Assembly (NCBI RefSeq): GCF_006345805.1
Contig: NC_043007.1
Coordinates: 71,424,001 to 71,488,000 of the forward strand
Reading direction: 5' to 3'
Length of the DNA stretch: 64,000 nucleotides
Source of the DNA: Octopus sinensis
Lineage: Eukaryota
Made by a program: the position numbers and the translations under genes. Below, in pieces: positions 3,521-63,539 of the stretch. The notes beneath the pieces were generated by a model, which saw nothing but the letters and a program-made list of their open reading frames with translations, ran no database searches and was not told the DNA's origin. Each line of letters starts with the position of its first letter. Positions within the stretch are counted from its first letter, which is position 1.

Positions 3521-5442
3521 TTAATGCCCATAATCTTCATTACAAATCATCATTTGAACTATATAACTCATATATGACTCTCCAACATAATCTGGATCAC
3601 AGCCATAAGTAACACGTATACTAACATCCTGTAAATTTTCAGTAGATTCTGGAGATAATTTGACAAAGAACTTATGTCCTTCAGGCTTCCCCAAATTCAA
3701 TTCTGATGTGCCTTCAGCTAATAATGTAACTAGATCTGAACCATCTGAACCTTCTTCCTCTGTTATCATATTGCTCTTTGATACCTTAATATGAACTTTG
3801 CCACACATACTAGTGGCAGTAATTGTAATATTCCCAGCCCAGCTTGGATAAACAAAATCAAAGACTGGGTTTGTTTTAACTGACACTGTGATACCTGAGA
3901 CTGTTTTGTTAAATGGCAATCCTCGAATATGTTTCTCTACATCACATGGTTTAATTCCCACAAGTTCATAGGCTTTAATAAAGGGGGTTAGATCTTTCCC
4001 AAGATCATAGGCAACCTTCAAAGTATCACAAGCCCCTGAAGTGAAATCTGTATGAGGATGCCAATATATTTCATTGGCAATAAGGAAAACTCGATAAGCT
4101 TCCTTGATATCCATTTTTAATTCGTGTACAATGTAGTAAAAAATAAAATTATAAATCCCACTTCCATGATGAGGATCCGTGTTTTCAGTGAAGTTATCTA
4201 CATGACTTATAGATATATTGTCCAGGGATGGGTCTGCCATAAATCTCAATGCTTCCTCATCTTTCATGATGTTGAAGCCAATTAACCAGTCATTCCCACT
4301 TGCATAAGCTTCAGTGACCTCTCCAGTCATATCAGAAAAAGCCTCATTCATAGATCCAGACTGATTAAAGTAAAGCAATCCAGAGTGTTGTTCTGTGAAG
4401 CCATGGGCAAGTTCATGCCCGATAATATCAGCATCTGTTAAAGGATAAAAGTATTTATAGCCATCACCAAATGTGCAATATGTCCCATCCCAAAATGCGT
4501 TTTCAAAATCTTCTCCAAAGTGAACACGCAATATAGCTTGTTCGTTTAGTATTGAAGTATTATACCATTCCTGAAACATTTGAGATACTACACTGCCGTA
4601 ATAGAAAGCATCAAGTGCTGGAGATGACGCTGCATTGACACTATCATTAAAACCAACGTCACAAAGATAATACATAGGATCTGTATTATTAGAGTCTGCC
4701 TCAAAACTGTTTTGCATGTCTATAACCTTTACATAATTGTTTTCAAGGAAACACATGTCACCAATTTGAGTTACAAAAGCTTTGTGATTTTTCTCACTAA
4801 ATTTGTATATTCCTGATTTTTCATTACCGCCGGAACCAGTCAGTACTCTGGAAATTGTATCTAAATTGTTATATTTCAACAGTATTTCTCCAGTGTTACC
4901 ATCAATGACAAATGTAGGCCGTTTAATAACTATTTCATTTTCTATTCGATAATTAATATTGTATACTAATCGAGGTTTGTCATTTTCATCCATGAAAATC
5001 ATAATTTCATATTCTGGTTCGATACTATTTGCGTAAATCTCATCTCCCTCTGCTTTAAAAGCAATATCAAAGACATCTGATTTGGAAAGCTTTGGTTTTA
5101 CATTTGTAATATCATCTTCAATTCCTTGAATAAATGTTCCTGTTGCATCACCAGTCAAATGTCCATCTTTATCTTCTGTAACAGTTAATGAAGCATCAAA
5201 AACAGGAACACCTAAGAACTTCTCTTGTAAGCGTAAAACTTCTGTGCCTTCAACTGTTTTGATACGGTTTGACTCTTCAACTTCTTCATACTCCTTCAAA
5301 CCAAGAAGATCTCTGACTGTTACTTCAGCTTTATCTAAATGACGCCGCTGAAACGGAGCTGAGGGATGATAAATCATCCTCCTTGCTCTTTCATGGGCAT
5401 CAACGCGATAAGCTGCGTCAGATGTCTTTATCAGTAACAAAC
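3521..5442 (-). CDS. M4 (thermolysin/pseudolysin-like) zinc metalloprotease, copy 1, exon 2 (prodomain, catalytic domain, C-terminal extension)
   Basis: 639-aa open frame with HELAH (HExxH), GSMNEAFSD (third Zn ligand), NAFWDG, FGDG..FYPL, DPHHGSG and a PepSY-like FVIDGNTGEIL. It starts at a splice acceptor (minus strand tttttag|GT, AG at 5444-5443), not at a real ATG. Confidence 0.95.
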
Positions 5443-6657
5443 CTAAAAAAATGAAAGCATTAAAATCATTAATAACAGCAACATCAGGATTTTTTTAAAA
5501 GAAGACTAATTTTTTAACAATACATACAAACATAGTGACTGAACAACAGAAATAGGTCTGTATCTATTTAAAAAAGAATTAAATTAGCAATTCAAATTAA
5601 TAGAAATATGAGCTTATAATTTCAAATATATTGTCCAATAAAAAAAATTACATCAGTCAAACCTATTTTAGTGCGAATAATTTCATCCAAAGAGAAATTC
5701 AGTTTGTTCATGCAGTTAATTTAATATTTGATGAAATAGGGAGGTGATTTGTTACAAGGAGTGATTAGTTTTAAGTGAATGGAAGCGAGTGTCCTTTTAG
5801 TAAAACAACAATCAGTATCTGGAAACTACAAGTTAACTAAGGTCTGCACATCGGTTATGTAATATTTCAACAGAACATAAAAGTGAACAATTCCAAACAC
5901 ATTACAAATATTTTCTATAAAGATTCTATTGTAACTCATTTACATGTGTACACCACTGCATGAATTATAAATGGCATTTGATGCATAAATTGAGTTAAGT
6001 ATTACATTCTGTTCCCCAGAAATTCACTTCCCGAGCCATTGATCTCAACAAAGGTATGTAAGATTTATGTCAGTAAATCCATTATTCCTAGCAATGACAT
6101 CTTTCTCTTAGATTTCTAAAGTCATTCTTCCCTGTATCCACAGGTAAGTTAAATTACTGTGACACCTTTTTCTGCGACGAATTTGTAAGTTCAGCTACCA
6201 GCCCAGGCCCACTAATCGTCAGAGTATCAAAAATCAGACGACAGAATGATAAACAATTGTATTGTGAACGTCATTACTGTACAACTGTTTCTGCAGTAAG
6301 ATGATGTAGACTCATAGTTGAGTTCCTGCGAAACAAACAACTTATAGCTTCATCAGAGCCTGAAATATGAAGTGAAATTTATTTGGGAAGAAACATCTAC
6401 ATTTATGCATATACACCCAAAAGCATTATCAGTGAGAAGACAAACACATGTGTGAAGGGAATGAAATTCAAGGCCCCACTCCCTTGAAATAACATTAATG
6501 TTAAGGCTTTATAAGGAAAGGTACACTTAGATGCAAAGAAACTGTAATTAGATCTATCAGTGAAAATATATGTATACATTATCACATGAAAAGTATACCC
6601 ACACACCCAGATCTATATACATATACATACAAATATATGGATACAAATATTCATACA

Positions 6658-7852
6658 TTGGGTTGGTAAAAAAGTTCGTCGCGTTCTTCAATAGGTGATA
6701 TGTTTTATCACGTGACAGAAAATGACGAGTATATTTTCTAGAAAAGTGGATCTCAACGCATTTTGCTGTTTTAAATTTGTGCGGATTATTTACTTCTACT
6801 GTTCTTACGATAAAATTGAAAAAGAAAGAGCATGAAATTCATATTCCTCATTTAACGCTCTTTCGTTTCCGGGGAGGCAAAAACGCTGGACAAACAGCAA
6901 AGAAGATATGCGCTGTTTACGGAGATGGTGTTATATCTGAAACTACTCTCTGTAAGTCGTTCGCTAGGTTTAGAACTAAGAATTTTGACCTAGATGATTG
7001 TGAGCATTCTGGCAGGCCTGCAGTCGTTGATAATGAACAAATTGAGACTTTTATGAAAATACAATAACCTACGTTACACAGTACGAGACATCGCAGAGAT
7101 TATCCACGTATCTCATGCGAGCGTTATAAAATATTTAAAACACTTGGTTATATGAATTGCTACGATGTTTGGGTGCTTCAAAGCTTAACAGAAAAATATT
7201 TAATCGAGCGCATTTCCATCTACGGTTCTCTAATCTGAGGAAACAAAATTGATACATTTTGGAAAAGAGTGGTCACGTGTGATGAGAAATGGATTATTTA
7301 CAACAACATAAAACGAAAGAAGTCCTGGTGAAAACGAGATGAACCACCTTCAATTTCTCCAAAACTGGTCTGTATTTGAAGAAGGTGATGCTCTGTATCT
7401 GGTGGGATTGGAAGGGTACTGTGTATTATAAGCTACTTCCACAAAATCAGACGTTAAATTCAGACTATTATTGTTTCCAATTAGACTGTTTAAAGGTGGC
7501 AATTGATGAAAAACGTCCAGAATTGGCCAACCAAAAGGGACAACGCTAGACCACACGTTTCTTTGGAGACCAGGCAGAAATTGGTGCAGTTTGGGTTGGA
7601 TGTCCTGCCCTACACATCGTACTCACCTGACCTTGCACCTTCGGATTATCATTTATAATAGCCACTTAGATCAGTCATTGACCCAGGAAAATGCTAAGCT
7701 CTAGGAGGATGGGATCATGATGCTGCCTCAAAGATGACGAAAAGTAGTGGAACAAATTGGCAAGTATGTGGTTGAATAAAGGTGTGTACAAATATCTAAG
7801 TATTGTTAATGAATGTTACATAAAAACCGGCTCAAATTTTTTCCCGACCCAG
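6658..7852 (+). mobile_element. Degenerate mariner transposon in intron 1 of copy 1
   Basis: HTH region (..ICAVYGDG..SGRP), TCDEKWI, KVMLCIWWD and YSPDLAPSDY motifs broken by stops and frameshifts; imperfect TIRs. Confidence 0.9.
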
Positions 7853-7913
7853 TACATATACGTATATATCTATCTCTTTCTCCTCTCTCCGCCCCTCTCT
7901 CTCTCTCTCTGTA

Positions 7914-7946
<33 letters not shown>

Positions 7947-7958
7947 CACACACACACA

Positions 7959-8028
<70 letters not shown>

Positions 8029-10166
8029 CAAGAGTTATGGAATGGAGTAGGAAAAATCCCAGCTTCATATGTTTCATAGCCAGTGGAATTTCAGAAATGG
8101 TAAAATCCAAGTGAGGCGTATACCGCGGGCTACTCTTCAGGCCAAGTATATCTTGATTAGATTCAAGGTTATATTGTTGCAAGGAGGTACCATTTGACAC
8201 AAAGAAGATTCAATCAGAATGTGTAGAGAGTACAGTATGAGAGAGGTATATAAATGTAGGGAGAAGGGAAGAATGAAGAAAAAATAGGAGAGAGAGTGAA
8301 ATGAAGAAGGAATTCGGTGCGGTAAGTTGACTGGTAGTAGATAGTTTAGAGCTATTTGATGTCTACTTCTAGCGTGTTGATGTTTATCAGAACCATTTAC
8401 TATAATTGTATCTGTATAATTATATATCAGTATTAATTGTCCCTATATGGTTTTTATTATACACTGGCCACTTGATAAAATTTGAATTTATATTTTTATA
8501 CACTGGCCACTTGATAAAATTTGAATTTATATTTTTTTCGGGTATATTATACTGAAGACGGCATACGGATTTTATATCTCTTAGCTATGTGTGTGTATAT
8601 GTTTGCGTGTCTGTGTTTGTCCCCCAGCATCCAAGGCTCCTTCATTGGAACTTCAACATAAACAGAGTATTTTTGTATGTATGTATGTATGTATGTATGT
8701 ATGTATGTTTGTATGTACGCGTACGTGCAGATTTGTATTTTTTGCTTTACGTATGCCTTCTCATGCATATATTTACATATCTAGATATGGTCTTTTTTCA
8801 ATCATAAACTTCTAAAAAATTTTACAGATTTTTACAGTTCCAGTGATGATGTATGTATGTATGTATGTATGTATGTATGTATGTATGCATATATGTATAT
8901 AAGTTTGTATGCATGTATATATATTATTATAAAAAATATACCTCCAATTCTGCATCACTCCAGTTCACAAAACATTTAGAAATTATGACATTTTGAAACC
9001 ATTTAAGTAAATAGAAATATATCTATTAAGAATTTCAAGCATATTTTGAGTTTATCTTTTCTTTATATTTCTTTTCACATGAAAAAAAACCTTAGTTCTA
9101 TGTTCACATTTACCATCCAAAGAAGAAAAACGTCAGCAAAGTCTGACTCATGTGGGAAGACAAAAACACAGATATCCTATAAGAACCAAAAGAGATCTCT
9201 AAAATTTTGATCTTAACTAAAACAAATTGACGATATATGGAACCATACCAAAAAAATCAACAAGTGAATTTGCAGATTTCACCGAGCTTTTCACCGAGCT
9301 TTTCACCGAGCTAATCAAACTTTAAAGCAGTTGTGCGAAATTATAGAGACAGTAATACAACGCAGTCTAGAACAAAACTCAGAACACAAGCGAGAAAGCA
9401 ACAATATTTATCAGCAACAAGTGTATTCAGTCAAATACAGCTGAAATCATATTTGATTCCAAATATTCAAAATTAGCAAGGTGTCGTTTGGAACATGTTT
9501 AAAATAATGGCAAAGCTAAAATATATGAAAAGTGGATTTATTCAACGCCAATTTTGTAAAATATGATCTTGTCACAAACAAGTTTTGTGGTCTGTTTTTT
9601 GTAAGGTACTTCAATGAAAGAAAAAAGAGGGCGCTACACATTCAAATGATGTTCATTGGCAGCAAAGTTCATGCTTGACTTGCCATTATTGAACTTCTAA
9701 GTTGTAGAGTGATATCTCTGTATCGTACTAAAGCCTGCAATGAATTTCAGCCCCTAACACATCTTCAGACCAGAAAAAATAGGTCACAGATCTCTATTCT
9801 TCCTTGGTGAACACTTTTAGTTGAGCAGCCATGTTTACTCTGTAACACAAGAAAGAAAACTGGAGCAATCAAAGTAAGTTTGGATACATAAACACAAGAG
9901 GGCCAACTTTTGGCACACGTCTGGAAGGCAGTGCGACCAAAATAAAGCGAACGAGCGTGTGTTTGAGTGTATGTGACGGTGATAGCAACTTTAGCCTTCA
10001 TTTTTTCCCATTGTCTATCATATAAGTATTGAAATAATATCCATAAGTAAAACCTAAGTTCTATAAAATGTTTCATGTAGAAAACAAGTAATTTGTCATA
10101 ATCAGAAAATATAAAGATAAAATACATGTAAATTCAATAATAAAAAATTCTTGAAAATATACTTAC

Positions 10167-10215
10167 TGCCAAATAGGAGATGCCAGGAATAAAATAAAAC
10201 CATCAAATGACTCAT
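10167..10215 (-). CDS. M4 protease copy 1, exon 1 (signal peptide MSHLMVLFYSWHLLFG-)
   Basis: ATG at 10215; 49 nt followed by donor GTAAGT (10166-10161). Phase 1 matches the exon 2 acceptor (A|GT = Ser), giving hydrophobic MSHLMVLFYSWHLLFGSLLLIKTSDA and a 656-aa precursor. Paralogous exons occur at 19.8 and 49.3 kb. Confidence 0.85.
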
Positions 10216-10290: not shown

Positions 10291-10300
10291 TATTTATATA
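10291..10300 (-). promoter_or_regulatory. TATA box of M4 copy 1
   Basis: Minus strand TATATAAATA about 76 nt upstream of the ATG; present at the equivalent position in copy 2. Confidence 0.65.
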
Positions 10301-13059: not shown

Positions 13060-13299
13060 AAACGAAACTCGTCAATAAGACATTTTAGCAAAAAATGATG
13101 GATTTGTAGAGCGATGAACTGAACGCTATTAATATTGTTTAAAAGAACGTTTTATGATATAACGTCATAAGTAGCTTACAGAAAGAGTAGGGATATTAAT
13201 AGTGAATGTTAAATATAAAGGAAATTAAAGTTTAAATTATATATAATGATAGAGACTACTTATATGCACTAAAGGTGTGTTTTTGCCAATGTTTACATC

Positions 13300-19828: not shown

Positions 19829-19877
19829 TGTCAAATAAGAGATGCCAGAAATAAAATATAACCCACAAACGTCTCAT
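19829..19877 (-). pseudogene. Orphan M4 exon 1 (MRRLWVIFYFWHLLFD-) with mutated splice donor
   Basis: Homologous to the exons at 10167-10215 and 49262-49307, including flanks. Donor reads GAAAGT instead of GTAAGT, the TATA segment is missing, and no exon 2 lies between it and copy 1. Confidence 0.8.
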
Positions 19878-36012: not shown

Positions 36013-36999
36013 CTAAAAAATGAAAACATTACGATTATTAATAACAGAACCATTAGGAGTTTTTCTTTACGATGGAGACTAATTTTTTTGACAATACATT
36101 CATACATGGTGAATAAACAGCAGGGTTAGGCCTGTATCTATTTGGAAAAGCATTGAACTAGTTTTCAATTCAAATTAATACAAATATAAGCTTATAATTT
36201 AAAATATATTGCTCACTAAAAGAAATACATGAGTCTGACGCGTTTCAGCATGAACAAATTCATCCAAATAGAAATTCAATGAGTTTCTATAGTTAATTTA
36301 ATGTTTGGTGGAATAGGGAGGTGATTTGTTAGATGGAATGACTAATTTTAAGTGAATGGATGTGTATATCCTTTTAGTAAAACAACAACCTCTTTCTGAA
36401 AACTACAAGTTAACTAAGGTCTGTACATTTTTGGTGTAGGATAACTTTGCTGATGATTTGAATGCATTCTGGTTATATTCGACGTTGTTTTTTAAGTTGC
36501 ATTCCAGTATTTTTTACTTCATATGTCCCTTCAAGCGATTCATCATTGACTTACAATGATTATAACAAAAAGCTATCAAATGTATTATTAAAAGTGAAAA
36601 ACCTGAAAATTATAACCTTGATTAGTGTATGACTTATAAGTCATTTATGGGCATATACTTGATGCTAGAATCTTTGAGATGCAATTATATAATTTCGTGT
36701 AGAGTAGTACATTAGGTTACTAAAGCCATTGTTCCCTGATGAGTGTAAGACTTATTCGGCAGTTATGGGAATATAAATATGATGTAAGAATCTTTAAAAA
36801 TGCAAATTTATAGTTTCATGTTTAAGAATTATAAATATAGAGTAGTATTGCATTTTGTTTATCTGAATTCCAACAGAATGACATTTATGCTTTATTTCAA
36901 TATTCATATAAATTCTGCTTCATACCAAACACTCTATTGTATAACATAATTATTTTTCTTGGCTAAATAATCTGCAATAGAAAAGAACAATTAGCTGTT

Positions 37000-38280
37000 G
37001 ATCAACTGTTAATGTAAAGGTAGGAGATTGTAATAGAAACACCACTGATAACGCTATTTAAAACAGATCTAAGGTGATTGGATTTGACATTAATATAATG
37101 GAAGTATTCATTATTTTTATGGTAAGGGTAGTATGAGTCAGGGTTTACGCCTAGAGTAACATCTAAAAAGTTAGTTAATGCAGTGCTATTTTTGATAGAA
37201 ACACAAAGTTTATATATGTTAAAGAATTTATGGCGGGCTTTCTGGGTTTGCTCTAAACTGGAATTCGAATATATTTGGTAGCTACGAAAAGAACTTCGTA
37301 CTTATAGCAATCATTCCTAGCTAAGGAATGCATGTTAATTCATTATAAAAGTAAGATGTACAATGTTGGTAACTTGAACAAAATACAAATATCCCATTGG
37401 AATGTCGAAGTAGTCCTTAATAGAATTTCTAGATCTTCTTATGTTGATAAAGTATATAAGGTAATTTCATGCCATTACTATAACATCTATATCTGAGTGA
37501 GAGGAAAGGTACCGATTTACTCAGAAAAATGGGAAACTGGTTTGTAATAATTGGTAATGTCAAACTGGAGAAACAAAGTATTTGTTTTGTTTTGGGAAGT
37601 GGGGATAAACCACATCCGTTCTGTTCCAAAGATTAAATTTATTTGGTCCCTTACTATTGGAAAAAGTCTAACTAAAATATTGTTAATGATAAGTTCTAGT
37701 TCGGATTTGTTGGGGCAGGCCAACCTGATTAAGGGTTTATTGAGGAAGTTCAGCTTATGAGATTTCAAACTAAGGTTTGTGTGATGGAGGAGGGTTAAGG
37801 GTATAACGATCAGTCCTATCATCTTACTTTTAGGTCTCCAATAAAGTTTAGGTATTGGTCATTGATCTTCTGAAGTGCACTCTTATTTTCCATGATGATG
37901 AAATTTTATATATATCCATCGAGCGCAAATAAGGTTTTGGTTTTATCAGTAATTACATGTATGTACAGCGATTTTGTAATTCTTAAAATTGTCCTTAATA
38001 GTTTATTTTGCAAATAGCTAATGTATTTAGAAAACGTGATGCCTATGATCATATGTAGTAAGACACTCTCAGATTTATCAAGCAAGCTACGATATTATGC
38101 ATTGGGTTCTTGTATATTTATTTTTAGATTAAAAGATTACTTCTTAATAGGTTTTGATGTTTAGCAGAAAGCTCGACCATTATACTCTTCTTTCCATATC
38201 ATTTGTTTTTTGAAGCAGTATTACAATATGAATGTTCCAAGGTTGAATAAGGATATCCTTCATCAAAGAACCTAAGAATT
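37000..38280 (-). mobile_element. Penelope-like RT relic
   Basis: HHTNLSLKS..IRLACPNKSEL..QFDITNYY..GLLRHSNG..FLDVTL fragments, heavily frameshifted. Confidence 0.65.
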
Positions 38281-38608
38281 GGGTATTTATAGTACGTGGC
38301 ACCACATGTAACTAGAGATAAGAAGATATGCAGCTCTAGAATATCAACTAATTGTCTCTTGAGAGGCTTACCGTTGGCGATTTTTTTTCCTCTGTCTTCT
38401 CTTCTCTGGATCTTTCCTACTCCTATGTTTCCGACGAAGAGCTCCGCTCGAAACGTTAAACCCTCCTTCTATCCTTCTTTCCTGAGCGTCCAATAATACT
38501 ATATTTGTTCCACGTCCTCGCGTTGTTGTGTTTTTTGTGCTTTCTTGTTTGGATTAATTATATATATATATTACTTTAATCTGTAATGATAATAATAGGA
38601 ATAGTATC

Positions 38609-39070
38609 GTGACCAATGCTAGCAATAATAATTACACCTATCATAACAATAAAAACTCCGTATTATCCAAAAATTCCGTATTATCCAAAAATTCCAAAAT
38701 TAGAAACACAATTTACCAATGCAAAATTTCTTCGGGTACCGATGTCTTCTTTTACATAGGGGCAACTTCATCTAAATTAGCCCAAAGGATCCCCAACCAT
38801 TATTCAACTTTCCGAGATAAGAGAAAACAACACAGCACGGGATTAAGCAAACTAATTTGGCGTCTGAAAGACAGCAATTCAACCTTCAAGCTGGAATGGT
38901 CCATTTTGTCGGTATCCGTTCCGTTTGATAAGGGCAGAAAAATTTGTGTCGTCTGTAATTCTGATTTTTTTCATATATCATTCGCCAAAGTACCTTTAAT
39001 AAATTCAATCGTCGAGAGGTCCTACAGGTGCTTGCACTGGAGAAAACACACCTTTCACTCATATCAATAA
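38609..39070 (+). mobile_element. Penelope-like GIY-YIG endonuclease fragment
   Basis: IYQCK...FYIGATS...HYSTF...LSKLIW..CVVCNSD; followed downstream by a hammerhead motif. Confidence 0.8.
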
Positions 39071-39653
39071 TGACTAATATAGATAACCCCCTTGAATTTT
39101 AATTAATATATTTCCATTTATATATTTCACCCCTTTAGTTTAAAAAAAAATGTTATGCTTTCAAAGACATACTACCCAGTCCATTGAGGTTTGTTTTGCC
39201 TTTGTCCCAATACCTCACCCTCCTCTTTCTCTTTTTTTTCTTTCTCTTTCCCTCTGTCTATAGTAATCAAGCACACAGACATATATCTGCTACAACACCA
39301 CTATCTGTTTTTTTTTACATCTACCCATCCACATACACATTCACGCACACACATACACACACATAGGTATTAATACAGTTATATTCATTCACTCACACAG
39401 ACACTCATTCACAAAAGAATTTAACAAAACCCACCATATATACGACCTGTTCCAAATCACCTTACTTTTCTTAGGCCTCTCTCCCCCTACTTCGTTTGAA
39501 CTCTTGAACCTTTAGAACCTTCTAGAATTTTCTACATTCAACCAGTTTGACGTCACTCCTTATAAAGGAATATTAAAGAGACACTCATTATCGCTATGCG
39601 TTCCGTGAGAGCAGTCATCTAAAAGTTTTTGTGAATCTTGATGTTGACATAAA

Positions 39654-39752
39654 TTCCTTGTTTTTCCTGATGAGAAAGCGGCATAATGTACTCCTTATTC
39701 CTTCACAATTAGGAATATGCAGCCTTCGAAACATATGTCGATAATAAAGGAA
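39654..39752 (+). ncRNA. Type I hammerhead ribozyme motif
   Basis: CUGAUGA (39667-39673), stem II GAAAGCGGCAUA/UAUGCAGCCUUC, GAAAC-AUAU-GUC (39728-39739), imperfect stem I. Confidence 0.7.
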
Positions 39753-39931
39753 ATTTGTTAATTTGTCGTTCAACTCTATTCTTTCATTTATTCATAAATT
39801 TTATTAAAATACACACACATTTATACACGAAAACACGTTGTCTCTGCGCTAGGCACGTAACTTCAACCGTGTTATTTCTGATGTGAATTTGCTACCCAGG
39901 TATCGATTAAAAGATATTTCATTTTTCTACT

Positions 39932-39997
<66 letters not shown>

Positions 39998-40087
39998 GTA
40001 TGTATGTATGTATGTATGTATGTATGTATGTATGTATGTATTATGTATGTATGTATGTATGTATGTATGTATGTATGTATGTATATA

Positions 40088-40381
40088 AATTCAGGAAATA
40101 CAAGAAAGAAATTCAACTCAGGCAGACTACGATTGGTGGTGTATACATATACGGATTTAATAAAAAGAATTGTCTCAAACATATATTAATACATTCAGAA
40201 TATAGAGTTATAGAAATATAAAAATAAATATGAATAAGCATTCTAATATTTTTTATATTTCTATAACTCTATATTTTGAATGTATTACTATATGTTTTAG
40301 ACAATTCTTTTTATTAAATCCGTATATCTATAGACCAATCGTAGTCTGTCTGAGTTGAACTTCCTTGTATTTCCTGAAATT
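40088..40381. repeat. ~290-bp near-perfect hairpin
   Basis: TTCAGGAAATACAAG..AGACTACGATTGGT..TATAGAGTTATAGAAATATAAAAA pairs with its reverse complement around a short loop at ~40230. Confidence 0.9.
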
Positions 40382-41659
40382 ATCTAGCATCTCTGGTTTG
40401 TCTCGAGCACTTCCATACTTTCTATGATTTTCTAAAGAAAATTTATATATATATACTTTGTTCGATAAATATGAAAAACGTATCAATAACCATTTCTCGT
40501 CTTTTAGACTCAAACGCAAAGCCAATTGTTCGTCCTTATCAAGCAAGATTTGGGAACTGAAGGAAAGCGGGATCGAATTTAGCCTTAAATTGGATAATAC
40601 GGAGAGCTCAGCCTTATAGAGATAGTCGATACGGGTGTTAGCAGTGCTCTATGGTCACTTAGGAGATTTTTAAGTATAGGGACAAGAACAACCTGATTAA
40701 TAGATTAGACCAATGGGTATCATGCCTACATAGCGTCAACCGTACATTTAAGTATTTTCGAAATTAGCGATTATAGGTACCATACTTGAACTTTGATGGT
40801 GGAAATTAATTTTGGTGTCGTATCTGTAGTAAACTTACTCTCTAATATTATATATAATAAAATCATGGTATATTAAGTTATATGGGGAATTAAATTCTAT
40901 TGCATATCTTATAAGCTATATGATATGGTGTGTAATGAGCTATATGTAATTACTATCCCATGAAAACTCCCGCCTACTTAATTTGCCTTCATCATGTTTT
41001 TGGTGATTAAACTATTTGTTCCTTTCTATGATGTTCTACCCTACTGATCATATTATATATATTTCTATTGGCTTTTATGTAAGTAAGTCTCCTAATTATA
41101 TACCTCCTAGAAACTATAAAATCATATATGTAATAAGACCTGTAACATTGCAACTTATAAAATCTCTTCGGTCGGAATACCTCCACCTGCCCTCACTACT
41201 CCCTTACCTACAAGCTCCTCTCTTAGGGTTACCTTTGTCTCTTCCCTACCTCAAAGTTTAATACCCTGTCTCTTTAAATGTAAGTTATATATATTTCTTA
41301 TTTTCTATAAATTCTTATTATTTTGTTTTCTTTCTTTGATATCCTTACCTATTAAATCCCTTCGAGTTGTTACTGTTCTTTAATAGAGATTTTTCAGCTA
41401 CTAGATCTATGCGAAATGGTTAAACTACAGGGTGTTCCAGAAGTCTTGGGCACATTTCAAGTCCTCATATCTACTAGACTATGATTGGTAGTAAGATGAA
41501 ACTGGTACCATTTTAAAGCTATGATTTTTTCATATTTTTCAGATCCAGCTGATGCCTTGCTAACCTCTTGGTAAATAGACACGTTGAGGACTCAGTTTGC
41601 TTGAGTGTTTCTACGTCATTTACTTTGTGTTTTCTTGAGTGGACGGCACAAAACCACAA

Positions 41660-42100
41660 TGACAGGTAAGATCTTCATTTAGAAGACGCATCGTTTTGCC
41701 AGCGTGCCTTCATACTTGCACAAAGTTGGTCCTGATGTTGAAGTTGACTTTGTTCAAATCTTTGAACTGAGGTGAAGCAGGACTGGCGCCAGGTCCTGCG
41801 TTCTGATGCTTTGCTTTCTAATGGAGAAAAGGGAATGTTGCATTGCTTCAAATTGTCTTTTAGTTTTCCTTTGAAGCATAAGAGTAGCCTTCTAAATGAT
41901 CTTCCTGTTGGGAATTGGTCAAAGAGTAGTTGCTTCGAAATTCTGATATCACTCATACATGAGAGAAGACCTGACCATCTAAGCTGAGTGAGCTTCACGA
42001 CTCTCCATTCATCTCCTAGATTAAGCAGCCAGCTTTTGCACTGTTGATAAATCTGGACCATCGCTCTTTAATGTAGGTACCACGGCAGCATGAATGATCT
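41660..42100 (-). mobile_element. RTE-like LINE 3' fragment
   Basis: QLRWSG..MSDIRISKQLLF..KLKDNLK..ERRTWR. Confidence 0.75.
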
Positions 42101-42236
42101 TGGGGACTAGACCCGTTTTCTGCAGGTACTTGACAACATCACCATGCCAAATTTTGTCCAATCTTTAAGTGACATCAGCGCATATGTAAATATATGATAT
42201 ATATGTATATCTAGTTTTTTTTATGGATTATGTGAC

Positions 42237-42304
<68 letters not shown>

Positions 42305-42451
42305 TATATATGTATATATGTTTGTATGTATGTATGTATGTATGTATGTATATATGTATGCATGTATTTATGTATGTATGCATGTATGTGTATGTGGATT
42401 TATCTGTATATATGTATCTATATATGAGTATATTTTTATACGGATATACAT

Positions 42452-44050
42452 AGGTTCCCTGCTTGTGTCCTGAAGGTGTATCGACACCAACTTGCATCTC
42501 CCCTTTCTAATCTGTGGAGAAACTCACTGGATGCTGGCTATATTCCTAAAAACTTTCTGTCCCAGTCTGTTGTCCCAGTTTTCAAAAAGGGAAACAAGTC
42601 CCTTGCAGTGAACTACCGTCCGATCTCACTCACCTCTCATATCATCAAGGTATTTGAGAGGGTGGTGAGATCTCGAATAACCCAATTTCTGGAAAGCAAC
42701 AGACGGCTGATCTCTAACCAACATGGGTTCCTTAATGGAAGGGACTGCCTAACGCAGCTCCTGCATCACTTTGATGACATTTTGAGAGCTTTAGGAGAGG
42801 GATCCAACACCGATGTCATCTACCTTGATTTCAGCAAGGCCTTCGACAGGGTTGATCACAAGATCCTATTGAAAAAAACTATCCAGCATTGGTGTCTCTG
42901 GAAAGTTACTGAAATGGATCAAGAGTTTCCTGACAGACAGATCTCAACATGTTGTAGTTGAAGGGTTAAAATCAAGCCCAGCCAAAGTCAGTAGTGGCGT
43001 TCCGCAAGGCACTGTGCTGGGCCCACTTCTTTTCATCATCTACATTAATGACATTGATGACATCATCAAGCACAGCAACATAAAAATCTTTGCAGATGAT
43101 TCCAAGCTCCAGAAGGTCATAAATGAGGCGAGTGACCGGACATGCCTTCAGTCAGATCTACTGGCTGTTATCCAATGGGCAGAAAAAAACAATATGCTGC
43201 TGAACGAGGATAAATTCGAGTTAATCTACTTTGGAAAAGAGGATGCCCTGAAACTCCCATACTCCCTTCCTTCAGGTGAAACTCTCGTGGCATCCAACAA
43301 CATCAGAGACTTGGGAGTAATTGTGGACAACAACATAAGCTGGGCCACTCATATAAACACCAAAGTTGACATGGCCCGCAGAATGTGTTCCTGGATTCTC
43401 AGAACTTCCAGTCGAGAGATATCCACACCATTATCCTTCTCTTCTCCACTTTTGCCCGACCCCACCTTGAATACTGTTGTCCACTGTGGTCTCCCCACAC
43501 AAAACAAAGTATCATAAAAGTTGAAGCACTTCAAAGGGCAATCACAAAAAAGATAGATGGCATGACAGGCCTCGACTATTGGGGTCGACTAGAAAAGCTA
43601 AAACTTTATTCTCTCCAACGTCGCCGTGAGCGTTACATCATCTGCATGATGTGGAAAATATTCCATCAGCATTGCCCAAATGATGTTGGCATCACCTTTA
43701 AGGTACATCCAAGGCTTGGGCCCCGTGCCATCAGCCCAAAACAAAAATCGCACTCTCATCTCATAACAACAATACGGCACAATTATTTCACCTCAATTGG
43801 CCCCGCTCTCTTTAACATTACACCAAAACACATTAAAACAGAAACAGACCCTATAGGATTCAAGAAGTCTTTGGACAGATTCCTTCAAGAAATCCCGGAT
43901 AAACCCCCTACACCCGGATATGTCTCTGTAAACATTAACTTTCTACTTGAGTGGGCCATAGTGCCCAAATTCTGACTTGAAAGACTTCACCAGGTGGTGC
44001 TATTAGGTTAGACATGGCCTGGGCCAATAATGGCCGAAACCTATCAAAGT
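42452..44050 (+). mobile_element. 5'-truncated CR1-clade LINE (reverse transcriptase)
   Basis: NYRPISLTS, YLDFSKAFD, SGVPQG, FADD, RPHLEY and LYSLQRRR, split by two frameshifts. Confidence 0.92.
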
Positions 44051-44251
44051 ATATATATATATGTATGTAAGCAGATGTTTATGTGTGTATATATATATAT
44101 GTATATATAAGTATATATATTTGCATTTATGTAAATATATGCGCAGGTGCATTGTGTCTATATATGTGTATGTGTATATGTATGTATATATGTATGTATG
44201 TGTATGTATATATGTATGTATATGTACGTATGTATGTATATATATATATAC

Positions 44252-44283
<32 letters not shown>

Positions 44284-44309
44284 ATATATATATACATATA
44301 TATATATAT

Positions 44310-44354
<45 letters not shown>

Positions 44355-44373
44355 GTTTAATATATATATATAG

Positions 44374-44411
<38 letters not shown>

Positions 44412-44429
44412 TTTAATATATATATATAG

Positions 44430-44463
<34 letters not shown>

Positions 44464-45550
44464 GAAATTTATAGAAAAGCAAAAAACAAAGACAGGTGTA
44501 TGAACGACAAGCAAATGTATTAGTTTGCCGCTCGGGAAAATTAAAAAGTTTTTTACGTTTCGAGCCCACGCTCTTCAACAGAAAGGAATAAGAGAAAATA
44601 AACAGAGAGAGAATGAAAAAAAAACTACACATGTATGTTATATATGTAATTATATATTTTATATATGTAACTTGTACATATATTTTATATATGTAATATA
44701 TATATATTTTTTATATATGTAATTATATATTTTATATATGTAATCATATATTTTATATATGTAATATATATATATATATTATATATGTAATCATATATTT
44801 TATATATGTAATTTGTACACGTGTTTATTACATAATGGACAAATAAAATAAAAAATGTATCAATAAATCTCCCTAAATGTATAATGTGACAGCATTACTT
44901 AACGTAATTGCGTTAGGGGCCAAATTATTTGTTATTATACTGAACGAGTTATAAATTTTTTATTCAAACTGAATTTTTATTGCTTGAAGCAAAATATGTC
45001 TTTGTTTTTATACTGAATCATTTGCAAATTTCTTTTATTGTGACTATAGACTTGTAATTTTAAAATAGTATGTTAATGTGGATATCTGAAAATTTTTTAG
45101 TGGATTAATTTATATTTCATGTTAAGTACCAATGAAGATATTTGTCTTGGGTGTAAAATATATTGCTATATTCGTAGTTAAATTTAAATTATATTAAATG
45201 ATTATACATCTATAAATATACAAATTGAATTTATTAATTAATGATGATAACAACAACAACAACAACAATAATAATAAATAAATAATTTTATATAATGCCA
45301 TATGGTGATCTAAAACTTTTCTATTGCAAGTACGACTTCCTGTCTATTTTATAACTATTGCTTTACTCTAATTTCGTTCCTTTCAAAAAACTTAGTAAAA
45401 TTATATATATTTTTTTTTATTTATAGCTTATTTTCTCTTTCTCTTAGAAATGATATAGTTTATAATTATCGTAGCTCTATATTTTTGTTTAGTTTATTTA
45501 CGGAAATTTTTCTTCTGATTAACTAAGTAAACTGGTATCTTTACTTGTTA

Positions 45551-46825
45551 TCAGGTCATCCCATAAGTTCTGTCCGAATTTTGAATAAAGAAAACAAGTA
45601 ATCAAATGTTATATTTAATTAAAATTTAATCATCAATGTACTTTCTCTGATTATCTATGACTTCCTTCCATCTATTTACAAGCTTTTTAATCCCATCAAT
45701 GGTTTCAAAGCGAAGAACTCTGAATTGTTAGTTTCGACCTCCTCCAGGCTTGCGAAAGATATGTCCCCCAAATGATTCTGTAAACTACGAAGCAAATGGT
45801 AGTCTGAAGGAGTAAGGTCGGGAGAATAAGGTGGATGAGGAATTTTTTGAAAACCAAAATCTCCGAGCTTCTGTGATGTAATCTTTGCAGTGTAGGGTCG
45901 CGCATTGTCCTGATGAAACATCACTCCTTTTCGATTCACTAAAGCATGTCATTTTTTCTTCAAAGCTTGGTTCAAACGCTCTAATTGCTGACAATAGACT
46001 TGAGCATTGATTGTTGCATTAGGTAGTAGCAATTCAATGTGAATTATTCCTTTGCAATCCCATCTGATAGAGAGAAGAACCTTTTTCCCATGAAGTTCCC
46101 TTCTTGATTGTAGTTGAGCTTTTTCCCTTTTACCAAGCCACTGTTTTCAACGTTTAACATTTCGATAGAAGATCTATTTTTCGTCACTAGTGACAAGTCT
46201 ATCCAAAATGGGTGAAATGAGTTCACGAGAATGGAGAGAAGAGCAGATATCAACTCGGGATTTGCGGTTGCTTTCGGACAATTCATGAGGCACTCATTTT
46301 CCAAGTTTAGGAACCTTTCCAAGTTGTTGAAGATGACGATGAACAGTGTATGGTTTGAACTAAGCTTTATTGCCAATTCTTTAACTGATAATGCAGGATT
46401 TTCTCCAAGTAATGCCTCAAGGAGCTTATCATCAAACTCAAGTGGACGTGCTGTTCGATCTTCAACTTCAAGGCTGAAATCTCCACTTCTGAATTTTGCA
46501 AACCCTCTTCTGCAAGTTCTTTCATTTAAGCATTATTTCCCATAAACTGAGTGTATGTTTCGAGTCGCTTCGGCTGCAGAGTTTCCTTTTTTTTTGTACT
46601 CATAAAGCATTATGTGCTTCAAATGCTCTTTGGATACGTCCATGTTAGAAAGGATTTTAAACAAAGAAATTTTAATTCTATTATTTTGTAAAATAATATT
46701 TAATTAGTTTAAATATACACAAATACATTAAAACAATTTTATTCCATTAGACATTCTAAAATACTATTAAATTTCATTCAATTTTAAAACAGGTAAAATC
46801 GGACAGAACTTATGGGATGACCTGA
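45551..46825 (-). mobile_element. Full-length degenerate mariner transposon
   Basis: TIR TCAGGTCATCCCATAAGTTCTGTCCGA at both ends, TA TSDs, HQDNARP and HPPYSPDL motifs. Confidence 0.95.
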
Positions 46826-47302
46826 TAGTTATTTTGAATAATGTTTATATCAGTAAGAAAAAAGTGAGTGTAGTTATATACTATCATTATATATAATTAT
46901 ATATCTTTTTGAATAATTATCCATATTATTGTAGTACCCATGAATATTTAGTAGATATACTAACATTATATTCTTTCGAATGTGTATACGTATATAAATT
47001 TATAGAATAAAAATATTGGATTAACATAATCTTTCTCCTTCTGTAAAACTAAGTGAAACTCTGATACTATATTTATTTATATATCATTATCTTTATCATG
47101 TATAAAATGGGTATAGTTATATAATAAACGTAAATTTATCCATTTGTTTAACATCGGCGTGCTTTGTATTTGAATAGAGAATTTAGTGACAGAATTAAAG
47201 ATATCCTTATTTATCTTTTTTCATCTAATATATAATAATTTTAAATAAAATATACTTTCTACTCCATAATTTTTTTTATATTTAATATATTATATATTAT
47301 AA

Positions 47303-47515
47303 AGCGGTGAGATGGCAGAAACGTTAGCACGTTGGGCGAAATGCTTAGGGGTATTTCGTCTGTCTTTACGTTCTAAGTTCAAATTCCGCCAAGGTCGACT
47401 TTGCTTTTCATCCTTTCGGGTTCGATAAATTAAGTAGCAGTTGCTTACTGGGGTCGATCTAATCAACTGGCTCCTTCCCCCAAAATTTTGGGCCTTGTGC
47501 CTAAAGTAGAAAAGA
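47303..47515 (+). mobile_element. tRNA-derived SINE
   Basis: Same core as the other copies in the window. Confidence 0.85.
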
Positions 47516-47639
47516 ATATATTACATATATTATAATAGATATTATATTATAAAATGGTCAGTAGCCAGTGATCATTTTCGATTAAAATACTTTTAGATAA
47601 ATGTTGTTGGAGATTCATAAGAACATTTTATGACTGTTA

Positions 47640-47965
47640 TAAATCTTTATTTAATCTTTTTATCCATTTGAATTTTGCTTTTCTTTTTATTGTACTTATT
47701 ATGTATTTGAATTATTAACGCTCGTGCTTCTAAACATAGGTATTATTGAATCAGTATTTCTGCCGTTTGGCAGTCCTTACATGGAATTTCGTCTTTTTTT
47801 TTTGTAAATCTTTATTTAATTTTTTTATCCATTTGAATTTTGTTTTCTTTTTATAGTACTTATTACGTATTTGAATTATTAACGCTCGTGCTTCTAAACA
47901 TAGGTATTATTGAATCAGTATTTCTGCAGATTGGCAGTCTTTATAAGGAATTTCGTTTTTTTTTT
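47640..47965. repeat. Direct tandem duplication, ~165-bp unit x2
   Basis: TAAATCTTTATTTAAT...GGAATTTCGT appears twice, immediately 5' of a hammerhead-like motif. Confidence 0.85.
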
Positions 47966-47975
47966 CTTTAACCAT

Positions 47976-48055
47976 AGCCCTGACGAGGCTTTTATACATA
48001 GAGAGGAATTTATATAACTTCATTACTGTATATAAGTCGAAAGAAATTGTTGGCT
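47976..48055 (+). ncRNA. Hammerhead ribozyme-like motif (stem III degenerate)
   Basis: agcc-CUGACGA-GGCUU.UAUACA/UGUAUA.AAGUC-GAAA-gaaauu-GUU-ggct. Confidence 0.5.
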
Positions 48056-48290
48056 TTATATGTGGTTTTTGAAGATTTGTTATGTTACATTATATTATAT
48101 TATATTATATTATATTATATTATAATGTAAATAAATTTTAGTTTATCAATTGTATTTATCAATTTCATTTAATATTTGTATATTATAATTATACCCTTTT
48201 ATCTGTGGTATTCAACTATTATACCAGTGAATTGGAGGTTTTACATCCCTTTGAAGGAATTGTTTTTTCCTTCGTTTGATTTATATATAT

Positions 48291-48370
<80 letters not shown>

Positions 48371-49261
48371 GCACACTCACACAAACACACACATACATAC
48401 AAACACGCACACACGTAGGCTCATTACTACACATTTCCTGCTGGTTTTCTGATCAGATTCATATAGTTTCTGTCAATTGCATAATTGCAGAGATTTCAAC
48501 TCAGAATAAGAACAAAATATTACATCAATTGGCGGTGAAGCTCATGGTTCCTGTTGTCTCCTTAACACTCATTCGCCTAGCATGGAAGTGGGTACAACAT
48601 ATGCATCTCAGATTTCCAAGGAACTCAAACAAATAAGAGTGGATAATCGTTTGCACAGGTGAAAAGTCAGGTGATTGATATTTACACCACTATTCTTATA
48701 GTATAACAACGAGACATAATCCTTAACAACCAGTGGCAAGTACCCATTAACCTTTTCCTTTTACAGCAAGCCTATTGAATCAGTTGAATGATAATGACGT
48801 AGCCCACCAGGAATGCAGAGGAACGAACCGAACCGGCAAAGCAGATGAAAGGAACAAGTTTTTAGCAAGAGAGAGAGAGAGGGGGGAGAGAGAAAAGTAG
48901 TGTCGACACAGTCATCTGGGGAGCAATTGTATAGCTATATAATTGGGTTTATAAAACAGGAAAAACATTTGTGATTCAACATAACCAATGGATAAGTTAC
49001 AATAGTTAAGACTCGTTCATGTGCTGATGGGTCTTAACTAAGGCAGCAACATGTTGATAGATCTAGTCACAAAGGAGAAATAGTTGAGGATGATTACAAG
49101 TTCGGTTAGATAGAGAATAGCAGAGATGTTACAATAATCCATAAGTCAAATCTTCTACAAAATATTTTATGTGGAAAATGAGTCGTTTATCATCATAAGA
49201 AAATGCAAAATTAAAATACACGTAAATTTATACAATGAAAAATTCTTGAAAATATACTTAC

Positions 49262-49307
49262 TTCCAAATAGGAGATACCAGCAATAAAGCAAAACCGACA
49301 AATGCAT
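49262..49307 (-). CDS. M4 protease copy 2, exon 1 (signal peptide MHLSVLLYCWYLLFG-)
   Basis: ATG at 49307, 46 nt, donor GTAAGT at 49261-49256, phase 1. It is the only exon-1 homolog seen between exon 2 of copy 2 and copy 3; implies a 13.2-kb intron and a 652-aa precursor. Confidence 0.8.
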
Positions 49308-59779: not shown

Positions 59780-60013
59780 TAGGGCGGTGAGCTGGCAGAA
59801 ACGTTAGCACGCCGGGTGAAATGCTTAGCAGTATTTCGTCTGCCGCTACGTTCTGAGTTCAAATTCCGCCGAGGTCGACTTTGCCTTTCATCCTTTTGGG
59901 GTCGATTAAATAAGTACCAGTTACACACTGGGGTCGATGTAATCGAATTAATACGTAAGTCTGGCCTTGTTTGTCCCCTCTATGTTTAACCCCTTGTGGG
60001 TAATAAAGAAATA
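59780..60013 (+). mobile_element. tRNA-derived SINE with 16-bp TSD
   Basis: TSD GGTATGTAGATGGGCA at 59764-59779 and 60014-60029. Confidence 0.9.
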
Positions 60014-60511
60014 GGTATGTAGATGGGCAGGCCGCTTGTACAGGTGCCTTGTATTTCTGCAGACCGACCGCCACCCCTTAGCTATTACTAAATCGGACGA
60101 CATGATGTCAGTAGCCAGGAAAATCTGTCGTCACATCTCTTACTTATTGAAGTTTATGGCCGCAATTTTTCCCCATATCAGTAACTTATTTTCTCTTTTC
60201 TCTTTCTCCTTTCTTCCATTCTCTCTCGTTTTCTTCCTACTCCTTAACTCTAAAGTACAATGTCAGTTGCACATTTTGTGTCTCAGACTTTGTTTATCCC
60301 CCGTTGATTCTCTTGACATATTTCTCGACCTGTTTATTTTTTTAATATTTTGTATTATTTGTGGTGTTGTGGACTTGAAAATTCGAAGTGACAGTGTAAC
60401 CTCCATTTTATTGAAGTAATCTCAGCCTGATGATTAGCTATATTTAGCAATATTCATTGCTTAACTATTACATCAAGAGGCTCATCTAGCTGGGAAACAT
60501 ATGTAACAAGC

Positions 60512-60694: not shown

Positions 60695-61130
60695 GCATAG
60701 AGGGAGTGTGACAGATTTGTAAAAACTCTGCAACTATCGCAAATGTCATAGGTCAGTAGAAAGAAAAGCCTTTTAAGCGCTGTTTCATAAAGCCATCTTG
60801 ACTATTTTATTTTTATATATTTTGTACCACAGGCTTCTCAAGTCACCACTGTGGTGTTCTGCACTTCGAAGGATTGTTAAATGGTCTTGAAAAGTTATTA
60901 AAATGTGAACTTGTTAAAGGAAATAATTTAAGAATTTCAAAAATAACAGTATTCTAATGGAATTTTTACAATTCACAAAATTTTCTTTTTTTTTTTACTA
61001 AACATTCACAGGAAAGTAAGATCATAGCTGTCTGAAAATGCAAGCAATAAGGAAATATTTATTGATTAACTTATAAATTAATGACCATAGTATTCATTAT
61101 TGAAACCAGTAGTTGAACATTTGGTTATAA

Positions 61131-61369
61131 TTTTGATACTCATAAACTTCATCACACATCATTCTATGAACTCAATATTCTTCATATATCTCAGGAACAA
61201 AATATGGATCACAACCATAAGTAACATGTACACTGACATTTTCTAAATATTCACTATCTGGGGGGATTTGACAAAAACATTTTCTACATATTCATTCTAG
61301 AGGGAATTTGACAAAAACTTTATGTCCTTCCAGCTTTCCGAAATTCAGTACTGATGTACCTTTAGTTAA
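61131..61369 (-). pseudogene. 3' fragment of a further M4 paralog
   Basis: Translates to KGTSVLNFGKLEGHKVFVK...YLENVSVHVTYGCDPYFVPEIYEEY*VHRMMCDE, with stops and an internal duplication. Followed by its own 3'UTR-homologous block (~60900-61130). Confidence 0.85.
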
Positions 61370-61680
61370 ATTTCAAAAATGTCAACTTGGATAAATATGT
61401 GAATTTGTTACTTATAATTTTACATTTGATGCAAGATGAGAAAATAACAATATTTTAATGAAATAAAGATACAAATTATGTTTATTACAATTTTCAATTT
61501 GTGTTACCTACTGAGCAACCGAAAAAATGTAAACTTACAATTATCTGCAAATGCAAGCAATTATGAAATATTTATTAATTAAATTGTAAATTAAGGAACA
61601 TATTATTTATAGAAACTGGTATATAAATATCCGATTATATATTTAAAACACGAAATTCTCATTACACATCCACGTGTGAA

Positions 61681-63539
61681 TCATATGGCTCTATCCAACC
61701 CATAAGAAACACGTACACTAACATTTTTTAAATTTTCGCTAGATTCTGGAGATAATTTGACAAAGAACTTATGTCCTTCAGGCTTCCCCAAATTCAATTC
61801 TGATGTGCCTTCAGCTAATAATGTAACTGGATCTGAACCATCTGAACCATCTCCCTCTGTTAGCATATTGCTCTTTGATACCTTAATATGAACTTTGCCA
61901 CACATACTAGTGGCAGTAATTGTAATATTCCCAGCCCAGCTTGGATAAACAAAATAAAAGACTGGGTTTGTTTTAACTGACACTGTGATACTTGAGACTG
62001 TTTTGTTAAATGTCAATCCTCGAATATGTTTTTCTACATCACATGGTTTAATTCCTACAAGTTCAAAGGCTTTAATAAAGGGGGTTAGATCTTTCCCAAG
62101 ATCATAGGCAACCTTCAACATATCACAAGCCCCTGAAGTGAAATCTGTATAATGATGCCAATATATTTCATTGGCAATAAGGAAAACTCGATAAGCTTCC
62201 ATGATATCCATTTTTAATTCGTGTACAATGTAGTAAAAAATAAAATTATAAATCCCACTACCATGATGAGGATCCGTGTTTTCAGTGAAGTTATCTACAT
62301 GACTTATCGATATATTGTCCAGGGATGGATCTGCCATAAATCTCAATGCTTCCTTATGTTTCAGGAGGTTGAAGCCAATTAACCAGTCATTTTTATCTAT
62401 ATAATTTTCAGTAACTTCTCCTGTAATATCAGAAAAAGCCTCATTCATAGATCCAGACTGATTCAAGTAAATCAATCCAGAGTGTTGTTCTGTGAAACCA
62501 TGAGCAAATTCATGTGCAACAACATCAGCATCTGTTAAAGGATAAAAGTATTTATAGCCATCACCAAATGTGCAATGTTTCCCATCCCAAAATGCCTCTT
62601 CATAATTTTTCCCATAATGAACACGCAATATAGCTTGTTCGTTTAGTATTGAAGTATTATAACATTCCTGAAACATTTGAGATACTACACTGCCGTAATA
62701 GAAAGCATCAAGTGCTGGAGATATCGCTGCATTGACACTATCATTAAAACCAACGTCACAAAGATAATACATAGGATCTGTATAATTAGAGACTCTCCCA
62801 ATACTGTTTTGCATGTCTATAACCTTTACATAATTATTTTCCAGGAAACACATGTCACCAATTTGAGTTACAAAAGCTTTGTGATTTTTGTCACTAAATT
62901 TGTATATTCCTGATTTTTCATTACCACCGGAACCAGTCAGTACTGTGGAAATGGTATCTAAATTGTTATATTTTAACAGTATTTCTCCAGTGTTACCATC
63001 AATGACAAATGTAGGCCGTTTAATAACTACTTCATTTTCTATTCTATAATTTATATCGTATACTAATCGAGGTTTGTCATTTTCATCCATGAAAATCATA
63101 ATTTCATATTCTGGTTCGATACTATTTGCGTAAATCTCATCTCCCTCTGCTTTAAAAGCAATATCAAAGACATCTGATTTGGAAAGCTTTGGTTTTACAT
63201 TTGTAATATCATCTTCAATTCCTTGAATAAATGTTCCTGTTGCATCACCAGTCAAATGTCCATCTTTATCTTCTGTAACAGTTAATGAAGCATCAAAAAC
63301 AGGAACACCTAAGAACTTCTCTTGTAAGCGTAAAACTTCTGTGCCTTCAACTGTTTTGATACGGTTTGACTCTTCAACTTCTTCATACTACTTCAAACCA
63401 AGAAGATCTCTGACTGTTACTTTAGCTTTATCTAAATGACGACGCTGAAACGGAGCTGAGGGATGATAAATCATCCTCCTTGCTCTTTCATGAGCATCAA
63501 CACGATAAGCTGCATCAGATGTCTTTATCAGTAATAAAC
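61681..63539 (-). pseudogene. M4 protease copy 3, exon 2, disrupted (exon 1 outside the window)
   Basis: Acceptor intact (63541-63540). GAG>TAG at 63390-63388 (Glu50 of the exon-2 frame). An apparent ~16-nt deletion near the 3' end gives YGLDRAI* and removes the two C-terminal Cys. Catalytic motifs HEFAH and NEAFSD are intact. Confidence 0.85.

Follow-up and report, generated by a model that had tools for sequence, protein, structure and literature searches.

One paper calls the M4 peptidases almost exclusively bacterial (PMC7851659). Their closest described representatives for our purposes, vibriolysin, Vibrio cholerae HapA and Pseudoalteromonas MCP-02, are built from a signal peptide, FTP and PepSY propeptide domains, the M4 and M4_C domains and a pre-peptidase C-terminal (PPC) domain. 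The window analysed here, a stretch of 64,000 nucleotides of Octopus sinensis DNA (contig NC_043007.1, positions 71,424,001 to 71,488,000), carries a tandem array of genes with the same parts in the same order, identical active-site residues and the same Gram-negative-type cysteine pairs. These genes differ from the bacterial enzymes in an intron within the signal peptide, a dibasic convertase-type site, an animal host and a PPC domain that has diverged below Pfam detection, and the animal family adds a helical tail with a cysteine pair in 30 of 58 members. Altogether our results favor, with a probability of about two in three, a model in which these are octopus genes for vibriolysin-type zinc endopeptidases that were acquired from a Gram-negative bacterium no later than the origin of molluscs, were inherited class by class, were recently copied in tandem in octopods and encode enzymes predicted to be secreted and to digest extracellular protein.

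Among solved structures the best sequence match to the product of copy 1 is the Pseudomonas aeruginosa pro-elastase LasB, or pseudolysin (E 2.7e-87, against 2e-31 for the thermolysin precursor). An AlphaFold model built with a 58-row alignment has a mean predicted local distance difference test score (pLDDT) of 87.1. Foldseek ranks vibriolysin MCP-02, Legionella ProA and LasB at the top, VIA-align places LasB first (Z 40.8, root-mean-square deviation (rmsd) 1.8) and the catalytic domain has a TM-score of 0.93-0.96 to MCP-02. An initial annotation of this DNA, made from its letters alone, had assigned the array to the Gram-negative type exemplified by LasB and the Vibrio HA/protease. The type holds, but the closest layout is that of vibriolysin and HapA: the LasB match stops at residue 515, the octopus protein is ~140 residues longer and its C-terminal PPC-like domain rules out a LasB-like layout. 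Pfam names no domain in these last 140 residues and its PPC entry has no match to copy 1. In hhalign against 43 bacterial C-termini the C-terminal residues match the PPC profile (probability 97.6, E 2.8e-12), and VIA-align superposes them on the PPC structure 5sv5 (Z 9.7, rmsd 3.0, 97 residues aligned). PPC and collagen-binding structures score Z 9.7-9.8 and the SID1 and PliG sandwiches tie with them at 9.8-9.9; a model of the C-terminal domain folded alone without an alignment (pLDDT 37) was left unused. On profile and model evidence we assign the last ~140 residues to a diverged PPC domain, predicted to bind substrate, and the protein as a whole to the vibriolysin/HapA-type layout.

The marks of the M4 family are present: HExxH followed ~20 residues on by the glutamate ligand in NExxSD, scores above the Pfam cut-offs and a thermolysin fold. 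Peptidase_M4, Peptidase_M4_C and FTP pass their cut-offs in all three copies in the window. The prodomain reported initially is thus recovered by Pfam in its FTP part, with PepSY under the cut-off in all three copies, though the PepSY region of the model aligns with the MCP-02 propeptide at Z 17.3. HExxH and NEAFSD likewise occur in every copy; other motifs quoted at the outset vary, with ENAFWDG in copy 1 only (EGSYWDG in copy 2, EEAFWDG in copy 3) and DPHHGSG and AFYYG absent from copy 2 alone (NPHHGSG and AFYHG there). The catalytic set is complete in copy 1, comprising the zinc ligands H359, H363 and E383 together with E360, Y374, R416, H441 and D439, where the assignment of the Tyr, Arg, His and Asp helpers follows thermolysin numbering. 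The zinc ligands, E360, D387, R416, H441 and four cysteines (C247, C277, C488 and C516) are invariant in 58 of 58 animal-clade rows. In copy 2 the Asp behind the His is replaced by Asn and the Asn of the edge strand by Gly; by analogy with thermolysin mutagenesis, this copy may be weaker or shifted in specificity. A dibasic K/R-R pair lies between the signal peptide and FTP in 24 of 26 named mollusc proteins against 3-5 of 90 bacterial ones (24 of 26 against 9 of 90 in a wider residue window); the denominators are the testable proteins among 38 and 109, and the rows are related, so the counts are not independent. Animal members appear to have gained a convertase-type site that is rare in bacterial members, and by the furin consensus we take it to be furin-type.

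The M4 frames have no start codon of their own, and signal-peptide exons were found upstream. Spliced copy 1 encodes 656 amino acids identical to the NCBI record 'elastase [Octopus sinensis]' (P0001). Four public runs, presumed to be RNA and with tissues given as codes, were compared with positions 3420-6000, which hold copy 1 only. Contigs of runs X1 and X7, from two studies, depart from the window exactly at 5442. The loose end of X7 matches 10167-10196 in exon 1 of copy 1 (the same 30 nucleotides occur in a twin copy outside the window), and that of X1 matches 49262-49291 in exon 1 of copy 2. Contigs of run X2 end before the junction, and the join was not seen in X15, a large DNA-like run. 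The joined form in the X1 and X7 contigs itself shows exon 1 spliced to exon 2. The GT-AG intron, the joined contigs in two studies and host-like codons (GC content at third positions, GC3, 0.27) mark genuine, integrated host genes, as initially proposed. A 49-nucleotide coding exon 1 followed by a phase-1 intron at codon 17 is common to three deep octopus paralog lineages, represented by copy 1 and by genes on contigs C30 and C3; for the C27 gene no exon 1 turned up within the 10 kb examined. Phase-1 introns are common near signal peptides. The shared arrangement supports, short of proof, a single intron-bearing ancestor.

A search with the copy 1 protein matched 675 proteins among 7999 scored candidates, the best 120 of which were listed. 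Among the matches listed, the scores of named proteins from bivalves and gastropods range over 341-519 bits, and the best named bacterium reaches 345. Named relatives span at least 16 mollusc genera in four classes (chiton, bivalves, gastropods and cephalopods including Argonauta); Gigantopelta, Physella and the chiton Liolophura among them come from cluster look-ups. The main tree comprises 55 of 90 rows (LG+G4) and has Bacillus and Streptomyces enzymes as its root. It places the window lineage inside a mollusc clade (support 100/99) whose subclades include those of cephalopods (97/95), bivalves (100/99) and gastropods (89/89). A second gastropod-containing branch also falls in this clade, and a chiton-cluster row sits outside the class subclades with low support. 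A mixture-model tree (90 rows, quick search only) agrees on the mollusc clade, with a Shimodaira-Hasegawa-like approximate likelihood ratio (SH-aLRT) of 98. In approximately unbiased (AU) tests a single clade for all mollusc rows is not rejected (p-AU 0.82) and lies 29 log-likelihood units above the free tree. A separate, cephalopod-specific transfer is rejected for the window lineage (p-AU 0.002): orthologs across Mollusca follow the class tree. Such tracking of the species tree, named beforehand as the sign of vertical descent, is found within Mollusca and not shown across Metazoa. The window lineage and a second octopus lineage (contigs C27, C30 and C10) are rejected as sisters (p-AU 0.019), and their duplication therefore predates cephalopods. 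The occurrence of the gene in chitons as well as the shelled classes points to an age of Cambrian or earlier. In one O. bimaculoides record (P0003) the propeptide is partly duplicated, possibly an annotation or assembly artefact.

The best 79 loci from a scan of 185,579 prokaryote genomes share 30-37% identity with the octopus protein over the precursor, and their titles name Gram-negative genera. The animal rows join the Gram-negative subtype against Bacillus and Streptomyces with 100/100 support. No named non-mollusc eukaryote appears among the matches listed (three sets of the best 120, many of them unnamed) or in the 30 clusters looked up. The horizontal acquisition proposed initially is, we think, very likely; distribution and architecture carry it, topology is not proof, and nesting among the Gram-negative rows is unsupported. 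No donor can be named, whether in the Vibrionaceae or in another Gram-negative lineage; a sister position of the animal rows has p-AU 0.57.

Several observations weigh against our model. An arrangement that holds all 20 Gram-negative rows together with the animals as their sister is unrejected at that same p-AU of 0.57. Deep nodes are unstable, and the free search overlooked better trees; a 231-row FastTree splits the animal-like rows (support 0.39) and leaves deep nodes without support, and only a quick search was completed under the mixture model. The strict R-x-K/R-R motif is found in only 9 of 26 named mollusc proteins in a 30-residue window and 3 of 26 in a 25-residue window, against 0 of 90 bacteria. 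An unnamed animal-like sister group could move the origin much deeper. As to function, passages of a paper on the digestive enzymes of Octopus maya make no mention of the M4 family (PMC12032550).

The sister group bears most directly on a different history, in which an early lophotrochozoan or bilaterian made a single, older acquisition, many phyla lost the gene and molluscs are one surviving branch, with the same enzyme mechanism. In one FastTree, 32 unnamed proteins join the molluscs (0.96), and once three more are added whose PPC domains are intact, the rows sampled make up a group with 99/95 support. Many of the unnamed proteins are paralogs on megabase contigs, 25-26 of 29 have the dibasic site, contig L096 ends in AATAAA in the manner of an mRNA, and none of the 79 best prokaryote-genome loci falls inside the core group. 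These proteins could, however, be unsequenced molluscan or bacterial ones; the support for the wider group collapses in the 231-row FastTree, and the absence of named non-mollusc eukaryotes among the matches listed and the clusters looked up also speaks against so early a date, which we hold to be possible and on balance unlikely. In another reading the gene descended vertically from an early eukaryote and was lost in most lineages, with no transfer; this would suit a sister relationship between animal and Gram-negative rows and the low identity to bacteria. Yet the full bacterial layout is retained, PPC included, the animal rows side with one bacterial subtype, named protist, fungal and non-mollusc animal matches are absent among those listed, and ten Atlas clusters are listed as 98-100% bacterial (taxa there come from few members); we consider this reading improbable. 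As for bacterial contamination or recent transfer into this octopus, the long coding exon is intronless and its sequence bacterial-type, but the spliced host exon, the host GC3, the spread of at least 11 matches over five contigs, the orthologs in other octopods and molluscs and the p-AU of 0.002 oppose it, and we regard both as excluded by the splice junction and the orthologs.

P0194, P0297 and P0158, unnamed M4 proteins that each carry an intact PPC domain or two, branch beside the animal rows. The first two combine a short signal peptide with a dibasic site and may represent the least-diverged animal form. A 'Peptidase_M4' in a paper on Perkinsus proved to be M41/M48.

The three long minus-strand M4 frames recovered by a six-frame scan (3521-5494, 34100-36028 and 61681-63387) confirm the three colinear copies first described, in an animal-type, microsatellite-rich setting (34.5% GC, 89 tandem-repeat rows). 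Tandem expansion is borne out, with only two of the three window copies intact, namely copies 1 and 2, which have two exons each; copy 3 is broken in the assembly. The upstream signal-peptide exons, the stop codon and deletions of copy 3 and the continuation of the array beyond both window ends had escaped notice (Table 1). Within 124 kb around the window there are one extra intact copy and one fragment. A genome search gave at least 11 matches on five contigs, a lower bound, seven with long intact frames and four broken or partial; a Pfam-family search gave nine. The TATA-like box of copy 1 recurs before four further exon-1 copies in the array and is absent before the orphan exon, for which no exon 2 was found between it and copy 1. 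Exon 1 of copy 3 lies outside the window, ~6.4 kb upstream. Past the stop codon of copy 1, positions 3200-3520 diverge from copy 2 and contain no AATAAA in 320 nucleotides, where copy 2 has one; the 3' untranslated region of copy 1 has possibly been replaced by an insertion. A close paralog at 31.4 Mb on the same contig, 40 Mb away (L004/L191), has a propeptide frameshift and a shortened exon 1.

Table 1. Features of the window (positions count from its first letter)
Feature	Positions	Strand	Remarks
TATA-like box, copy 1	10291..10299	-	~80 nt (nucleotides) upstream of ATG; putative promoter element
Copy 1 exon 1, coding part	10167..10215	-	49 nt, 16 codons + 1; first part of signal peptide
Copy 1 intron	5443..10166	-	4724 nt, GT-AG, phase 1
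Copy 1 exon 2	3521..5442	-	remainder of signal peptide; FTP-PepSY propeptide; M4 catalytic and PPC-like domains
RARR in N-terminal pro-region, copy 1	5378..5389	-	furin-type convertase consensus by sequence; candidate cleavage site
HELAH zinc motif, copy 1	4403..4417	-	H359, E360, H363
Third zinc ligand, copy 1	4331-4348	-	E383 in NEAFSD
D439/H441, copy 1	4157-4177	-	in DPHHGSG
Diverged PPC beta-sandwich, copy 1	3602..3931	-	residues ~521-630; predicted by hhalign and VIA-align
Orphan exon-1 relic	19830..19877	-	without GT donor at usual place
Copy 2 exon 1, coding part	49262..49307	-	46 nt; TATA-like box at 49386-49394
Copy 2 intron	36013..49261	-	13249 nt, GT-AG, phase 1
Copy 2 exon 2	34100..36012	-	intact 652-aa (amino acid) product; edge strand GSYW for NAFW, NPHH for DPHH
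Copy 3 exon 2, broken	61681..63539	-	in-frame TAG 63388-63390 in propeptide; deletions and early end near 61678-61693
Degraded C-terminal relic of a further copy	61130..61400	-	40-nt tandem duplication at 61236-61318
Minisatellite	30708-31513		19-nt unit x 43, between orphan exon and copy 2
Overlapping frames inside copy 2 intron	42428-43975	+	presumably fragmented long interspersed element (LINE) reverse transcriptase
Transposase-like frames	45676-46532, 56208-56820, 6726-7622		presumably mariner/Tc1 fragments
GIY-YIG endonuclease-like frame	13256-13639	-	presumably end of a Penelope-like element
GIY-YIG endonuclease-like frame	38558-39070	+	presumably end of a Penelope-like element
SINE (short interspersed element)-like dispersed repeat family	18565-18992, 24870-25078, 47304-47519, 53179-53431, 59784-60018		77-90% identical

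Among four array copies (six pairs) the ratio of nonsynonymous to synonymous divergence (dN/dS) spans 0.33-0.56 overall; the propeptide gives 0.10-0.27 and the catalytic domain 0.36-0.57. No region exceeds 1, and positive selection was thus not detected among these copies. When copy 2 is compared with copies 0 and 1, the propeptide shows less synonymous divergence than the catalytic domain (p=0.0015), a contrast absent in the two other pairs tested, and we see in it a hint of gene conversion in the propeptide. Differences between copies cluster at the edge strand (NAFW, NAYW, GSYW and EAFW). Nearly identical propeptides combined with differing substrate clefts would widen the specificity of the set.

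How such an enzyme would work can be sketched by analogy with bacterial M4 peptidases, from which secretion, propeptide removal and zinc-dependent cleavage are extrapolated. The observed step is the splicing of exon 1 to exon 2. We envision that the signal peptide then directs the product to the endoplasmic reticulum and that a convertase of the furin type cuts the N-terminal pro-region at RARR. The FTP-PepSY propeptide would chaperone folding and be self-cleaved near residue 212, as suggested by alignment with LasB and by what is described for autocatalytic removal (PMC7426729). A zinc site complete by sequence (H359, H363 and E383, with E360, Y374, R416 and H441) predicts activity, and the PPC domain would bind insoluble protein, for example collagen or mucin. 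In bacterial M4 enzymes PPC domains increase activity on protein substrates (PMC3327674); they can bind and swell collagen and are often cut off at maturation (PMC7426729).

Digestion of food protein, whether in the gut or in its glands, is the role we rank first, at slightly less than even odds. A close second is remodelling of the animal's own matrix or mucus, in skin, mantle, egg coat or hatching, or defence of the body surface. The family is found in molluscs whatever their diet, its bacterial relatives are described as swelling collagen and acting on clam mucus (PMC7426729, PMC9785129) and copy 1 has eight N-glycosylation sequons, all consistent with this role, which we nevertheless see as a tentative choice next to feeding. 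A third role would be that of a salivary venom or prey-softening component whose array expanded for predation; a salivary or venom function had been among the examples offered initially. This role would accord with a secreted-type protease, with recent tandem birth and death of copies, with variable cleft residues and with the occurrence of horizontally gained bacterial proteins in invertebrate secretions (PMC8047071). However, no M4-type name occurs among the annotation rows covered in the supplement of the O. vulgaris posterior salivary gland proteome (PMC7693380), the family has also multiplied in filter-feeding bivalves and grazing snails, and no region has dN/dS above 1; the suggestion finds no support here, and we rate it as rather unlikely.

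Acquisition of bacterial gene families is already a known type of event in molluscs, which limits the surprise. Biomphalysins (PMC8047071), msp130 (PMC11878542) and GH13_1 amylases (PMC7003070) are similarly patchy, with a proposed horizontal origin and lineage-specific expansion, but belong to other protein families, and none is an M4 peptidase. A full-text search, with most subscription papers and supplements outside its scope, found no published account of the molluscan M4 family, its origin or function, and a paper on Biomphalaria has no passage on it. NCBI and UniRef hold mollusc records as 'elastase', 'neutral protease-like', 'hemagglutinin/proteinase-like' and 'virulence metalloprotease-like', names transferred from bacterial matches; one of these records is identical to copy 1. 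The family is thus apparently undescribed though in databases, and a transfer table in a genome paper may list it.

A bolder version of our model, doubtful as a whole, would have a single Cambrian-or-older transfer to early molluscs, perhaps to all lophotrochozoans, deliver a complete vibriolysin whose activation was rewired by an intron-borne signal peptide and a furin-type priming site and whose collagen-binding PPC domain was kept, giving rise to an overlooked class of secreted animal proteases whose cleft diversified in octopods for prey digestion. In mollusc samples, M4 reads and peptides identified as 'vibriolysin' may originate from the host and not from Vibrio, and mollusc M4 genes risk removal as contamination. 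If our model is correct, a catalytically complete, spliced, phylum-wide animal branch of the M4 family would be a new protease class for molluscan biology, and its acquisition would rank among the oldest datable transfers of an enzyme from bacteria to animals, with steps of its domestication, the intron and the convertase site, still visible.

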